A stretch of 64,000 bases of DNA. Source: Escherichia coli. GTDB taxonomy: Bacteria > Pseudomonadota > Gammaproteobacteria > Enterobacterales > Enterobacteriaceae. Positions within the stretch are counted from its first letter, which is position 1, and every line of letters starts with the position of its first letter. Made by a program: the position numbers. Where the stretch lies: assembly GCF_029227855.1 (NCBI RefSeq), contig NZ_CP074356.1. One strand, written 5' to 3'. Shown here one piece after another: positions 51,001 to 63,000 of this stretch.

Positions 51001-54000
51001 TAAAGTTAGCGTCACGGTCAGCTTTCATCAGCTTCGCAATACGGGAGAATGCTTCATCCCAGCTAATGCGCTGCCATTTGTCAGAACCTGGCGCACGATA
51101 TTCCGGGTAGCGCAGACGGTTTTCGCTGTTGACGTAATCCAGCAAACCGGCCCCTTTCGGGCACAGCGCACCACGGCTTACCGGATGATCCGGGTCACCT
51201 TCAATGTGATAAATCGCTTCTCTGGCGTTTTTCGCGCCATCACCCAGGCTATACATCAATAGCCCGCAACCTACGGAACAGTATGTGCAGGTGTTACGGA
51301 TCTCTTTAGCGCGTAATAATTTGTAGTTTCGCGCCTGAGCCAGTGCTTGCTTTGGGGCAAAGCCCAATGCCGCTACTGTTGTTCCAGCCATACCGCCCGC
51401 GCAGATTTTAAAAAATTGTCTGCGACTGACGTCCATTGCTTTCCTCTTTTTTCAGGGGTATTACTGCGCGAGGAAACTAACAGTAAAATTCTGAATCTTT
51501 TTGCGCGAAATCAAAAAGAACACGTGTTTGCCACAAAATAATCCGCCTGCGCAAATTGACCTACCTCAATAGCGGTAGAAAAACGCACCACTGCCTGACA
51601 GGCCAGTTAAAAAAATGCTATAAAATTCAGCTTAATTTTTAACGGCAAGAGAGACAAAACAGCGAGCATGACACGACAAAAAGCAACGCTCATAGGGCTA
51701 ATAGCGATCGTCCTGTGGAGCACGATGGTAGGATTGATTCGCGGTGTCAGTGAGGGGCTCGGCCCGGTCGGCGGTGCAGCTGCTATCTATTCATTAAGCG
51801 GGCTGCTGTTAATCTTCACGGTTGGATTTCCGCGTATTCGGCAGATCCCGAAAGGCTATTTACTTGCCGGGTGTCTGTTATTCGTCAGCTATGAAATCTG
51901 TCTGGCGCTTTCCTTAGGATATGCGGCGACCCGTCATCAGGCGATTGAAGTGGGTATGGTGAACTATCTGTGGCCCAGCCTGACAATTCTCTTTGCCATT
52001 CTGTTTAATGGTCAGAAAACCAACTGGCTGATTGTACCAGGATTATTATTAGCCCTGGTTGGCGTCTGCTGGGTGTTAGGTGGTGACAATGGGTTACATT
52101 ATGATGAAATCATCAATAATATCACCACCAGCCCATTGAGTTATTTCCTGGCGTTTATTGGTGCGTATATCTGGGCAGCCTATTGCACAGTAACGAATAA
52201 ATACGCACGCGGATTTAACGGAATTACCGTTTTTGTCCTACTAACGGGAGCAAGTCTGTGGGTTTACTATTTTCTCACGCCACAACCAGAAATGGTATTT
52301 AGCACGCCCGTCATGATTAAACTCACCTCTGCGGCATTTACCTTAGGATTTGCTTATGCTGCATGGAACGTCGGTATATTACATGGCAACGTCACCATTA
52401 TGGCGGTAGGTTCGTATTTTACGCCCGTCCTTTCCTCAGCGCTTGCAGCCGTGCTGCTCAGCGCCCCGCTGTCGTTCTCGTTCTGGCAAGGCGCGCTAAT
52501 GGTCTGCGGCGGTTCCCTGCTCTGCTGGCTGGCGACACGTCGTGGCTAAAATAATTGTCGGGTCTACGGCCCGGCAGTTAATCAGATAAATTCCGACAAT
52601 ATAAAAAAATAAATTTCAAATACCAGTAGTTCACCTTATATCTCATTTCGACTTCGATCACATATCGATAAATAATATTATTTCATCTATTTTTCTCATT
52701 GTTTTTAATCACCATTCTATTTTAAAAACAGTATGTCATTTATAAATGACGCCGTTTAAAATTCGTTTAGAAAATACGTTTAACGATAATTAAAAGGATT
52801 CTGTTAAATGAAATTAAAAATAGTTGCGGTGGTTGTAACTGGTTTGTTAGCTGCGAACGTAGCACACGCTGCCGAAGTCTATAACAAGGATGGTAATAAA
52901 CTCGACCTTTATGGCAAGGTTACCGCTCTACGTTATTTTACTGATGATAAGCGTGACGATGGTGATAAAACTTATGCCCGTCTCGGCTTTAAAGGAGAAA
53001 CGCAAATCAATGATCAAATGATTGGTTTTGGTCACTGGGAATATGATTTTAAAGGCTATAACGATGAAGCCAACGGCTCGCGCGGTAACAAGACCCGTCT
53101 GGCCTATGCAGGTTTAAAAATTAGTGAATTTGGCTCTCTGGGACTATGGTCGTAACTACGGTGTCGGCTATGACATTGGTTCATGGACCGATATGTTGCC
53201 AGAATTTGGTGGCGATACCTGGAGTCAGAAAGATGTCTTCATGACATACCGTACTACCGGTGTGGCAACCTATCGCAACTACGATTTCTTCGGCTTAATT
53301 GAAGGTCTGAACTTTGCCGCGCAATATCAAGGCAAAAATGAACCCACTGACAATGGTCATCTTTATGGTGCTGACTACACGCGTGCCAATGGTGACGGTT
53401 TCGGTATCTCCTCAACTTATGTTTATGATGGCTTTGGTATCGGTGCGGTGTATACCAAATCCGATCGGACAAATGCGCAGGAAAGAGCCGCTGCTAATCC
53501 TCTCAATGCCTCCGGTAAGAATGCAGAACTGTGGGCTACAGGTATAAAATATGATGCCAACAACATCTACTTTGCAGCTAATTACGCTGAAACATTAAAC
53601 ATGACCACCTATGGCGATGGTTATATCTCTAACAAAGCACAAAGTTTTGAAGTAGTGGCACAATATCAATTCGACTTCGGCTTGCGCCCATCACTCGCTT
53701 ACCTGAAATCGAAAGGCAGAGATCTGGGCCGCTACGGCGACCAGGACATGATTGAGTATATCGACGTTGGTGCGACGTATTTCTTCAACAAAAATATGTC
53801 GACCTATGTTGATTATAAAATCAACCTGATTGATGAAAGCGACTTTACCCGTGCCGTAGATATTCGCACCGATAACATCGTCGCAACGGGCATTACCTAT
53901 CAGTTCTAACATCCTCTCCTGACCAGCCCTTCTCTGGGCTGGTTTTTGATTTAAGTGCTGCTGTATGACTCCTTAAGTAAAAATGAGCAATTTTTGATAT

Positions 54001-60000: not shown

Positions 60001-63000
60001 AAACCATCGCCCGTGAATTTGCCGATACCGCCCATAAAACGCATGGGCGCTCGATGATTATCCTCGGTGCTGGTGTCAACCATTGGTATCACATGGACAT
60101 GAACTACCGTGGGATGATCAACATGCTGATCTTCTGCGGTTGTGTCGGGCAAAGCGGTGGCGGCTGGGCACACTATGTCGGTCAGGAAAAACTGCGCCCG
60201 CAAACCGGCTGGTTGCCGCTGGCCTTTGCGCTCGACTGGAACCGCCCACCGCGCCAGATGAACAGCACCTCGTTTTTCTACAATCATTCCAGCCAATGGC
60301 GCTATGAAAAAGTCTCTGCTCAGGAGTTACTTTCACCGCTCGCCGATGCCAGTAAGTACAGCGGTCATCTGATTGATTTCAACGTTCGTGCCGAACGTAT
60401 GGGCTGGCTACCTTCTGCGCCGCAGCTGGGGCGTAACTCGCTCAGGATTAAAGCTGAAGCCGACAAGGCCGGATTATCCCCCACAGAATTTACCGCCCAG
60501 GCGCTGAAATCGGGCGATTTACGCATGGCCTGCGAACAACCAGATAGCGGCAGCAATCATCCGCGTAATTTGTTTGTCTGGCGTTCTAACCTGCTTGGCT
60601 CCTCCGGCAAAGGCCACGAGTATATGCAGAAGTATCTGCTGGGAACCGAAAGTGGGATTCAGGGTCAGGAACTCGGTGCCAGCGACGGGATCAAACCAGA
60701 AGAAGTCGAGTGGCAAACTGCGGCGATTGAAGGCAAGCTCGACCTGCTGGTGACGCTCGACTTCCGTATGTCCAGTACCTGCCTGTTCTCCGATATCGTT
60801 CTGCCCACCGCCACCTGGTACGAAAAAGACGATATGAACACCTCGGATATGCATCCGTTTATTCATCCCCTATCTGCGGCGGTCGATCCGGCGTGGGAAT
60901 CACGCAGCGACTGGGAAATCTACAAAGGTATTGCCAAAGCCTTTTCGCAAGTGTGCGTGGGCCATCTTGGCAAAGAAACCGACGTGGTATTACAACCACT
61001 GCTGCATGACTCTCCGGCAGAACTCTCACAGCCGTGTGAAGTGCTCGACTGGCGCAAAGGCGAATGCGATCTGATTCCAGGTAAAACTGCCCAATATTGT
61101 GGCGGTGGAACGCGACTACCCTGCTACCTATGAACGCTTTACCTCGCTCGGGCCATTGATGGACAAACTTGGCAACGGCGGTAAGGGATTTCGTGGAATA
61201 CCCAGGATGAAATCGATTTCCTCGGCAAACTCAACTACACCAAGCGTGAAGGCCCGGCACAGGGGCGTCCGCTGATTGACACCGCCATTGACGCATCAGA
61301 AGTGATTCTGGCTCTTGCACCGGAAACCAATGGTCATGTTGCAGTCAAAGCGTGGCAGGCGCTGGGCGAGATCACCGGACGCGAACATACCCATCTGGCG
61401 CTGCACAAAGAGGACGAGAAGATTCGCTTTCGCGATATTCAGGCGCAGCCACGTAAAATTATCTCCAGCCCCACATGGTCCGGTCTGGAAAGCGATCACG
61501 TTTCCTATAACGCGGGGTACACCAACGTTCATGAGTTAATTCCGTGGCGCACGCTGTCGGGACGCCAGCAGCTCTATCAGGATCATCCGTGGATGCGTGC
61601 TTTTGGTGAAAGCCTGGTGGCTTATCGCCCGCCTATCGACACCCGTAGCGTCAGTGAAATGCGCCAGATACCGCCAAACGGCTTCCCGGAAAAAGCACTT
61701 AACTTCCTGACGCCGCACAGAAATGGGGCATTCACTCAACCTACAGTGAAAACCTGCTAATGCTGACGCTCTCTCGCGGTGGACCAATTGTCTGGATCAG
61801 CGAAACCGATGCCCGTGAACTGACCATTGTCGATAACGACTGGGTGGAAGTGTTTAACGCCAACGGCGCGCTGACGGCCCGCGCGGTGGTCAGCCAACGT
61901 GTACCGCCGGGCATGACCATGATGTATCACGCCCAGGAACGCATTATGAATATTCCTGGTTCGGAAGTAACTGGCATGCGCGGCGGCATTCATAACTCGG
62001 TCACCCGCGTTTGCCCGAAACCAACGCATATGATTGGCGGTTACGCGCAGCTGGCCTGGGGCTTTAACTACTACGGTACCGTCGGCTCGAACCGTGACGA
62101 GTTCATCATGATCCGCAAGATGAAGAACGTTAACTGGCTGGATGATGAAGGTCGCGATCAGGTACAGGAGGCGAAAAAATGAAAATACGTTCGCAAGTCG
62201 GCATGGTGCTTAATCTCGATAAATGTATCGGCTGCCATACCTGTTCGGTGACCTGTAAAAACGTCTGGACCGGTCGCGAAGGCATGGAGTACGCATGGTT
62301 TAACAACGTCGAAACCAAACCGGGCATTGGTTATCCGAAAAACTGGGAAGATCAGGAAGAGTGGCAAGGCGGCTGGGTGCGTGATGTGAATGGCAAGATC
62401 CGCCCGCGTCTGGGCAGCAAGATGGGCGTAATAACCAAAATCTTCGCCAACCCGGTGGTGCCGCAGATTGATGATTACTACGAACCTTTCACCTTCGACT
62501 ACGAACATTTGCATAGCGCACCAGAAGGCAAACATATCCCTACTGCTCGCCCGCGTTCGCTGATTGACGGTAAGCGGATGGACAAAGTGATCTGGGGGCC
62601 AAACTGGGAAGAACTGCTGGGCGGCGAGTTTGAAAAACGTGCCCGCGACCGCAACTTCGAGGCCATGCAAAAGGAGATGTACGGGCAGTTTGAAAACACC
62701 TTCATGATGTACCTGCCGCGCCTGTGCGAACACTGCCTCAATCCCAGCTGCGTGGCGACCTGTCCAAGCGGCGCTATCTACAAACGCGAAGAAGACGGCA
62801 TTGTGCTGATTGATCAGGATAAATGCCGTGGCTGGCGTTTGTGCATTAGCGGTTGTCCGTACAAAAAAATCTACTTCAACTGGAAAAGCGGCAAGTCAGA
62901 AAAATGTATCTTCTGTTATCCGCGAATTGAGTCAGGCCAACCCACCGTATGCTCAGAAACCTGCGTGGGTCGCATCCGGTATCTGGGCGTGCTGCTTTAC

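Follow-up and report, generated by a model that had tools for sequence, protein, structure and literature searches.

Several adjacent accessory or metabolic genes can be frameshifted during reductive decay in host-restricted enterobacteria, such as Shigella and Salmonella Typhi. Real decay of this kind combines frameshifts with nonsense mutations, IS insertions, and deletions; these lesions are common to clonal relatives and are accompanied by substitutions. Phase-variable contingency loci are a second setting in which run length matters, and here it alters the reading frame or the promoter spacer. Each gene at such a locus has one long tract, usually at least 7 units in length, which lies in the promoter or at the 5' end. 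Loss of mismatch repair yields mainly transitions.

Mismatch repair loss also raises indel rates at mononucleotide runs (PMC8510543). Mismatch-repair-defective E. coli mutation-accumulation lines had approximately 6.0 substitutions versus 0.85 indels per coding sequence; their indel rate was exponential with run length, and most indels were in runs of at least 5 bases (PMC8510543). Break-associated stress-induced mutagenesis is described in PMC3533179, citing Rosenberg et al. 1994, as producing mainly single-base deletions in small mononucleotide repeats. The localization of mutagenesis is also discussed there (PMC3533179). Outside the cell, long-read bacterial assemblies usually contain residual errors, mostly homopolymer indels that cause frameshifts, and such errors survive wherever polishing with short reads is unsuccessful, for instance at low Illumina depth (PMC8812927, PMC9980784).

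The window analyzed here is a 64 kb stretch of an Escherichia coli genome in which five neighboring genes, from a porin gene to narZ, are frameshifted. Judged from sequence comparison, there is roughly a 90% probability that the affected block is a local patch of unpolished, low-quality consensus and not gene decay.

Run-length changes between yddG and narY

The nearest complete genome, NZ_AP045174.1 (JNEC-KY178), aligns to the 64 kb window end to end and differs from it by 11 substitutions and 14 indel events. The indels are confined to 53140-61717, with none in 1-53139 or 61718-64000. Thirteen are single-base run-length changes and the other is the loss of GC from GCGC; there are 3 insertions versus 11 deletions. 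Their targets are a porin gene, two leucine-rich-repeat (LRR) genes, narU, narZ, and the spacer upstream of narU, so that both coding and intergenic DNA are affected (Table 1). The original prediction placed all frame disruptions in one block, and the alignment bears this out more strongly than was reported. Its ten homopolymer indels correspond to nine of the 14 events. The five that it missed comprise three within the second LRR gene and two in intergenic DNA.

Table 1. Features in and around the affected block, with changes relative to close relatives.
Feature	Position	Strand	State in the window	Run-length changes	Private substitution
yddG	51668..52549	+	intact		T to A at 52167 (F167Y)
OmpC-family porin gene (yddL-like)	52808..53909	+	frameshift leaves 115 aa and 261 aa ORFs	extra G, GG to GGG, 53140-53142	G to C at 53344 (R to P)
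First LRR gene	54073..55339	+	frameshift leaves 240 aa and 178 aa ORFs	extra A, A4 to A5, 54754-54758	
Second LRR gene (yddK-like)	55402..56657	+	418 to 368 aa; three indels	A4 to A3, 56491-56493; T to TT, 56546-56547; A3 to A2, 56553-56554	
Intergenic, upstream of narU	56921..56936	no strand	two changes	CC to C, 56921; T7 to T6, 56931-56936	
narU (nitrate/nitrite transporter)	56967..58351	+	four single-base deletions, zero substitutions	A4 to A3, 57022-57024; T3 to T2, 57122-57123; T3 to T2, 57253-57254; T5 to T4, 57523-57526	
narZ (nitrate reductase Z alpha subunit)	58446..62182	+	three deletions and one private substitution	GCGC to GC, 61089-61090; A3 to A2, 61183-61184; CC to C, 61718	C to A at 59502 (P353T)
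narY (annotated narH)	62179..63723	+	intact; clean right flank of the block		

With the 14 edits reverted, the sequence is 64,009 bp long and differs from JNEC-KY178 only by the 11 substitutions. The ORFs of 115, 240, 368, 52, and 895 aa that are read from the window become 366, 421, 418, 462, and 1246 aa, respectively. The 366 aa porin ORF is uninterrupted in JNEC-KY178 and in all short-read relatives. The first LRR gene is unbroken in JNEC-KY178 (421 aa), and its gene call in the short-read relatives is 419 aa long; the 1246 aa narZ ORF is unbroken in all relatives. The repaired NarU is the exact protein encoded in 8 independent contigs.

An alignment to reference genomes and a count of changes inside and outside the block had been proposed with the original prediction. 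This count separates the block sharply from its surroundings. The block at 52167-61717 (9,551 bp) has 17 private differences, namely the 14 indels and three nonsynonymous transversions (52167, 53344, and 59502), and the other 54,449 bp of the window have 4 private substitutions and zero private indels. This is a 24-fold excess (binomial P 3e-11). The chance of all 14 indels falling within one span of this size is ~6e-11. Had the remainder of the window been hit at the per-run rates of the block, ~77 hits would have been expected there, and 0 were observed; the 55 kb free of indels outside 53140-61717 contain 68 runs that are at least 6 bases long.

On the left, the private differences of the block begin in yddG at 52167, where 4/4 close relatives and the outgroups have T. 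The YddG protein sequence of the window (WEP38697.1) is limited to the source genome. On the right, zero differences from the relatives are found after 61717. The 4 private substitutions beyond the block represent some real divergence of the isolate's branch, or further errors.

Window-state alleles in relatives and databases

None of six independent short-read assemblies of the same lineage has any indel that it covers, every completely covered gene in these relatives is called intact, and two of the six match the flanks of the window exactly. GCA_017075055.1 (covering 46968-64000) and Logan SRR10254033 (50825-64000) differ from the window only in the 14 indels and at the three substituted positions 52167, 53344, and 59502. 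The assemblies of SRR14933785, SRR18105866, and DRR063306 lack every indel within their covered part, and GCA_946060445.1, with coverage to about 54.9 kb, lacks both of those it covers.

Junction probes in the window state were searched against 5,426 complete E. coli genomes, among which the source genome is not included. Thirteen of the 14 junctions had zero matches in this set. Control probes in the state of the relatives matched 5,411 of the same 5,426 genomes. The exception is the T6/C probe upstream of narU, which matches 1,684/5,426 genomes, and T6 is present in at least two sequenced strains. All five close relatives examined at this tract (5/5) have T7 and not T6, so T6 is private within the lineage though it is a common polymorphism of the species. 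This T6/T7 tract is the only site that varies in the species; the remaining sites are short runs that are invariant across the genomes searched. In its polymorphic tract upstream of narU, and in run-length changes that alter the reading frame, the block is like a phase-variable contingency locus. Unlike such loci, its genes have multiple indels in runs of 2-5 that are scattered through the coding sequence.

Wider collections gave a similar picture. The window-state narU junction at 57021 had no match in a collection of species-representative genomes, which holds few copies of the locus, and the window-state narZ junction at 61088 had no match in a metagenome collection, where the intact form itself has only 6 matches. 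Seven of eight frameshift-derived ORF products tested are absent from a collection of ~15 billion proteins that does include intact neighbors encoded by the same genome. The remaining product, a 140 aa C-terminal ORF of narZ, is present and comes from other assemblies. No Logan read-set assembly contained the protein alleles of ydeP, dosP, and yddG that are private to the source genome.

These distributions bear on whether the genes are recent, real pseudogenes in which selection was lost on a dispensable porin/LRR/narU/narZ block and spontaneous slippage frameshifts accumulated. The affected genes are accessory or cryptic, the region is partly fragmentary in some E. coli (yddL, yddK, and yddJ of K-12), and the changes occur at base runs, as slippage predicts. 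The isolate's branch is also private, as the 4 substitutions beyond the block indicate. Against this, zero indels are common to any relative. Given the private substitution rate outside the block and a ratio of ~1 indel to 7 substitutions, ~0.1 indels would be expected in the block versus 14 observed (P ~1e-25), and relaxed selection cannot lift the indel rate above the substitution rate. Moreover, narU has accumulated four frameshifts with zero substitutions, and the block is free of nonsense codons, IS elements, and larger deletions, though single genes have three or four indels. The block thus shows neither the mixed lesions nor the sharing with clonal relatives that mark reductive decay in Shigella or Salmonella Typhi, and genuine pseudogenes are an improbable explanation. 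The original prediction had offered two alternatives and left the choice between them open. For slippage-driven decay, perhaps in a mismatch-repair-deficient lineage, it had named typical substitution density and the same indels in related genomes as the marks. Those indels were not found in related genomes, and the density of substitutions is below that expected beside so many indels. Its other proposal, local homopolymer sequencing or assembly error, is strongly supported by the privacy of 14/14 indels and their absence from independent short-read assemblies of the lineage.

Mutational spectrum and origin of the block

All ten single-base deletions (10/10) are in runs of at least 2 bases, where 48% of the block's bases lie (P ~7e-4), and all three insertions are copies of the adjacent base. 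Of the 13 single-base events, seven affect runs no longer than 3 bases. The ratio of indels to substitutions in the block is 14:3, compared with 2:17 for changes private to the relatives' assemblies at the same locus (Fisher P 2.5e-5). The events are also uneven within the block: nine are in 56490-57522, three are in 61088-61717, and zero are in the intervening 3.5 kb (P ~0.003-0.008).

The placement of indels at mononucleotide runs resembles the spectrum of a mismatch-repair-deficient (mutator) lineage, in which homopolymer slippage would be raised. The effect of such a deficiency would be genome-wide, with ~7 substitutions per indel and the indels in long runs. Here, the indels are restricted to 8.6 kb, exceed the substitutions by 14 to 3, and mostly affect runs of 2-4, yet 55 kb of the window is indel-free despite its many longer runs. 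The three in-block substitutions are transversions and not the transitions expected of a mutator. Of the explanations considered, a mutator history is the least probable.

Another alternative is a real, localized burst of frameshift mutagenesis over ~9 kb. Such a burst could arise, for example, from error-prone synthesis of the Pol IV/DinB type during double-strand-break repair or recombination that was left uncorrected by mismatch repair. The block resembles the signature of break-associated mutagenesis in its single-base deletions at short runs, which are spatially clustered with few substitutions. If synthesis was patchy, this could also explain why 9 of the events are crowded into 1 kb. 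To our knowledge, 14 events in 8.6 kb, with 9 of them in 1 kb, lie far beyond what reporter frequencies indicate for a single repair event. A burst would also require local failure of mismatch repair, and the block bears no other mark of a recombination tract, its identity to the lineage being the same as that of the flanks. An artefact covers the same pattern with no new mechanism, and a burst is very unlikely, somewhat more so than pseudogene formation.

The consensus-error explanation places the changes in the record of one assembly. The differences are private to that assembly, are confined to a patch, are mostly run-length indels, and can be reversed to the intact genes of the lineage. 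From this pattern, we infer that they originated in sequencing or assembly and not in the cell. The 14 indels, and probably the three adjoining private transversions, would be consensus errors in a patch of ~9.5 kb (52167-61717) that was called from low-quality or low-depth data and missed by the polishing applied to the remaining chromosome. Run lengths would mostly have been under-called, and the annotation would consequently show five neighboring genes as frameshifted. The clean state of the rest of the window, including its 68 runs of at least 6 bases, makes a simple platform-wide error process insufficient and calls for a local cause. This may have been a long-read bridge, a patch used for gap closure, or a gap in short-read depth.

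The block shares with residual errors of long-read and hybrid assemblies its deletion-biased, single-base run-length indels, its frameshifts in conserved genes, and its local persistence. It is unlike typical residual homopolymer errors in that many of its affected runs are of 2-3 bases, the patch is non-repeat, and three substitutions occur alongside. By this comparison, a low-depth or unpolished patch is a better match for it than systematic miscalling.

Several more specific causes of the changes were considered and rejected. Repeats could not account for failed polishing, as no direct or inverted repeats of at least 25 nt are present in 52000-62500. Part of the block is 33-36% GC and low GC may contribute to the errors, but it is insufficient alone: the narZ cluster lies where GC content is ~55%, and no such changes are seen in the AT-rich stretch at 14-16 kb. 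Import of the block from a decayed donor is contradicted by the block and its flanks, which are equally close to the lineage relatives. Errors at Dam or Dcm methylation motifs were also set aside, since inspection by eye found no GATC or CCWGG at the changed run in any indel context.

Consequences for annotation and mutagenesis

The porin, the two LRR proteins, NarU, and NarZ in this record are not to be taken as pseudogenes. Likewise, the isolate is not to be scored as nitrate reductase Z-negative, nor is the locus to be cited in support of gene decay or a mutator history. More generally, an otherwise clean complete genome can contain a kilobase-scale island of consensus errors, and comparison with near-identical short-read assemblies reveals such islands even when reads are not at hand. 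Were the indels real, they would represent a rare natural case of spatially clustered frameshift mutagenesis, and if they arose in a burst, break-associated mutagenesis would have left its natural footprint here in a wild isolate.

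Indel events in the yddG-narY locus

The segment 52000-64000 is the yddG, porin, LRR, LRR, narU, narZ, narY locus of E. coli, which is found in 5,421 of 5,426 complete RefSeq E. coli genomes. The remainder of the window contains the usual neighbours, including hipBA, a fimbrial operon, ydeP, yddAB, pqqL, gadBC, dosCP, ddp, maeA, adhP, and fdnGHI. JNEC-KY178 (NZ_AP045174.1), the nearest complete genome, aligns to the window end to end over 64,000 bp with 11 mismatches and 14 gap openings. All 14 indel events (3 insertions and 11 deletions in the window) fall within 53140-61717, in line with the original prediction that they are confined to one block. 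Nine of these sites had been correctly located in that prediction, and five further events had been overlooked. Coding and intergenic DNA are struck alike, with single genes hit three to four times; nonsense codons, IS elements, and larger deletions are all absent from the block (52167-61717). When the 14 edits are reverted, only 11 substitutions relative to JNEC-KY178 remain, and the porin, first LRR gene, second LRR gene, narU, and narZ have frames of 366, 421, 418, 462, and 1246 codons, compared with 115, 240, 368, 52, and 895 codons in the unreverted window.

Indel events in the window relative to JNEC-KY178
Feature	Position	Change (JNEC-KY178 to window)
porin	53140	GG to GGG
first LRR gene	54754	A4 to A5
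second LRR gene	56490	A4 to A3
second LRR gene	56547	T to TT
second LRR gene	56552	A3 to A2
spacer upstream of narU	56920	CC to C
spacer upstream of narU	56930	T7 to T6
narU	57021	A4 to A3
narU	57121	T3 to T2
narU	57252	T3 to T2
narU	57522	T5 to T4
narZ	61088	GCGC to GC
narZ	61182	A3 to A2
narZ	61717	CC to C

JNEC-KY178 is annotated with all block genes intact except the first LRR ORF. This gene (window 54073-55339; 2573-3838 of the JNEC-KY178 locus, L001) has an intact 421-codon frame in JNEC-KY178; the short-read assemblies give a 419 aa call. Because the RefSeq annotation of JNEC-KY178 and of GMF054, a further E. coli relative, reduces the site to a 288 bp pseudogene fragment labelled 'hypothetical protein', it seems to be a conserved ORF left without annotation.

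Two further features lie outside the block. An IS200C copy (46107-46794; tnpA ~46193-46651) separates yddM from fdnI in both the window and JNEC-KY178 and is absent from GMF054 and the assembly GCA_946060445.1. The contigs of several relatives stop at ~46.1 kb, and none from the close relatives cover 46107-46794. A fimbrial-subunit fragment lacking its N-terminus occupies 5296-5535, and the alignment of more distant relatives ends there, at ~5300. Upstream of it, an autotransporter and hipBA are present in the window and JNEC-KY178, along with a LysR gene. In GMF054 and others, fimA is intact and aldo-keto reductase genes are found. The fragment looks like a real truncation common to the lineage.

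Distribution of the indels among relatives

Additional relatives, recovered through the repaired NarU protein and lineage-specific alleles of maeA, yddB, and fimF, are the NCBI short-read assemblies GCA_017075055.1 and GCA_946060445.1 and the Logan short-read assemblies SRR10254033, SRR14933785, SRR18105866, DRR063306, and SRR14933781. Apart from the 14 indels and substitutions at 52167, 53344, and 59502, GCA_017075055.1 (over 46968-64000) and SRR10254033 (over 50825-64000) are each identical to the window. Each of the five genes (porin, two LRR genes, narU, and narZ) is called intact wherever the relatives' contigs cover it completely, and the repaired NarU protein is encoded exactly by eight independent contigs.

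Indels and substitutions private to the source assembly were counted, as the original prediction had proposed. There are 14 indels and 3 substitutions within 52167-61717, and no indels and 4 substitutions in the ~54 kb outside, a 24-fold excess in density inside the block (P 3e-11). All three in-block substitutions are nonsynonymous transversions (YddG F167Y, porin R to P, NarZ P353T). The relatives' own assemblies serve as an internal control: over this locus their private differences are 17 substitutions against 2 indels, a ratio inverted relative to that of the block (Fisher P 2.5e-5).

The relatives' two indels lie at 18920 (yddA) and at 29251, the latter at a contig end. The former is a single-base deletion in GCA_017075055.1, in which YddA is called as 521 rather than 561 aa. 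The outside-block substitutions private to the source assembly (11987 G to A, 13991 C to T, 25765 C to T, 33791 A to C) may reflect true divergence or additional errors in the consensus; the YdeP and DosP alleles that they produce are not known from any other genome.

Decay common to related genomes is contradicted by the searches, since no relative carries the indels. Junction probes with 20 nt flanks each, which seed matches only in genomes with the window's state, gave no match for 11 of 12 among 5,426 complete E. coli genomes, while the versions carrying the relatives' state match in 5,411. The sole matching probe, T6/C in the narU upstream spacer (1,684 of 5,426 genomes), reflects a natural T6/T7 polymorphism, as seen by alignment. 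This T tract (56931-56936, ~30 nt ahead of the narU start) varies in length in E. coli. Sequenced strains with T6 include ATCC 8739 and an isolate from the Netherlands; T7 is the state of the window's own lineage. The exact narU junction (57021) has no match in a species-representative genome collection, nor does the narZ junction (61088) in a metagenome collection, which contains its intact form six times. Of eight frameshift-derived ORF products tested, seven were not found among ~15 billion proteins. The remaining one, from a 140 aa ORF at the narZ C-terminus, is present there from other assemblies, and the same collection holds intact proteins of the source genome (WEP38664 to WEP38697).

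Probable consensus error and its alternatives

Indel events and base runs go together. Runs of two or more make up 48% of block bases but contain every one of the ten single-base deletions (P ~7e-4), and all three insertions copy the adjacent base. The probability of 14 random events all falling within one span of the block's size is ~6e-11. Applied to the remainder of the window, the block's rates per run length predict ~77 events; none is observed, in DNA with 2,034 three-base runs, 548 four-base runs, 168 five-base runs, and 68 longer ones. Within the block the events are also uneven (P about 0.003-0.008): nine cluster in 56490-57522 and a further three in 61088-61717, leaving the intervening 3.5 kb free of indels.

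Long-read bacterial assemblies are known to keep mostly homopolymer-indel errors, resulting in false frameshifts (PMC8812927, PMC9980784). The pattern here matches this artefact, being found in one assembly only, sharply local, ~5:1 in favor of indels over substitutions, and mostly deletions. For this reason the block is very probably (about 90%) a patch of low-quality consensus, and the 14 indels, judged from sequence comparison, are most likely not a real biological feature. Local sequencing or assembly error, one of the two explanations originally offered, is thus supported by the private, local, and indel-dominated pattern. The many events in runs of two to three suggest that the consensus was noisy and of low depth, more than that long homopolymers were systematically miscalled. 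As technical causes, internal repeats are absent from the block, and low GC fits only part of it.

The other explanation, genuine decay or a mutator lineage, is not supported. Even E. coli defective in mismatch repair gains ~7 substitutions for each small indel (6.02 vs 0.85 per coding sequence), and the indel rate climbs exponentially with run length, which places most such indels in runs of at least five (PMC8510543). A mutator would also act on the whole genome, whereas these indels are confined to the block, and relaxed selection is unable to raise indels above substitutions. Given the outside-block private substitution rate and a 1:7 indel-to-substitution ratio, ~0.1 indels would be expected in the block from real mutation, and 14 are observed (P ~1e-25). 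The block does not behave as real mutation does. The block is no more distant from the lineage than its flanks are, which excludes import from a decayed donor.

Clustered single-base deletions in small mononucleotide repeats are also the signature of break-associated, Pol IV-dependent mutagenesis (PMC3533179 and 1994 work cited therein), and the block's indels share it. Their density is far above that known for one repair event, however, and artefact accounts for everything more simply, making a real tract of such mutagenesis across the block very improbable. Such a tract, if true, would be remarkable.
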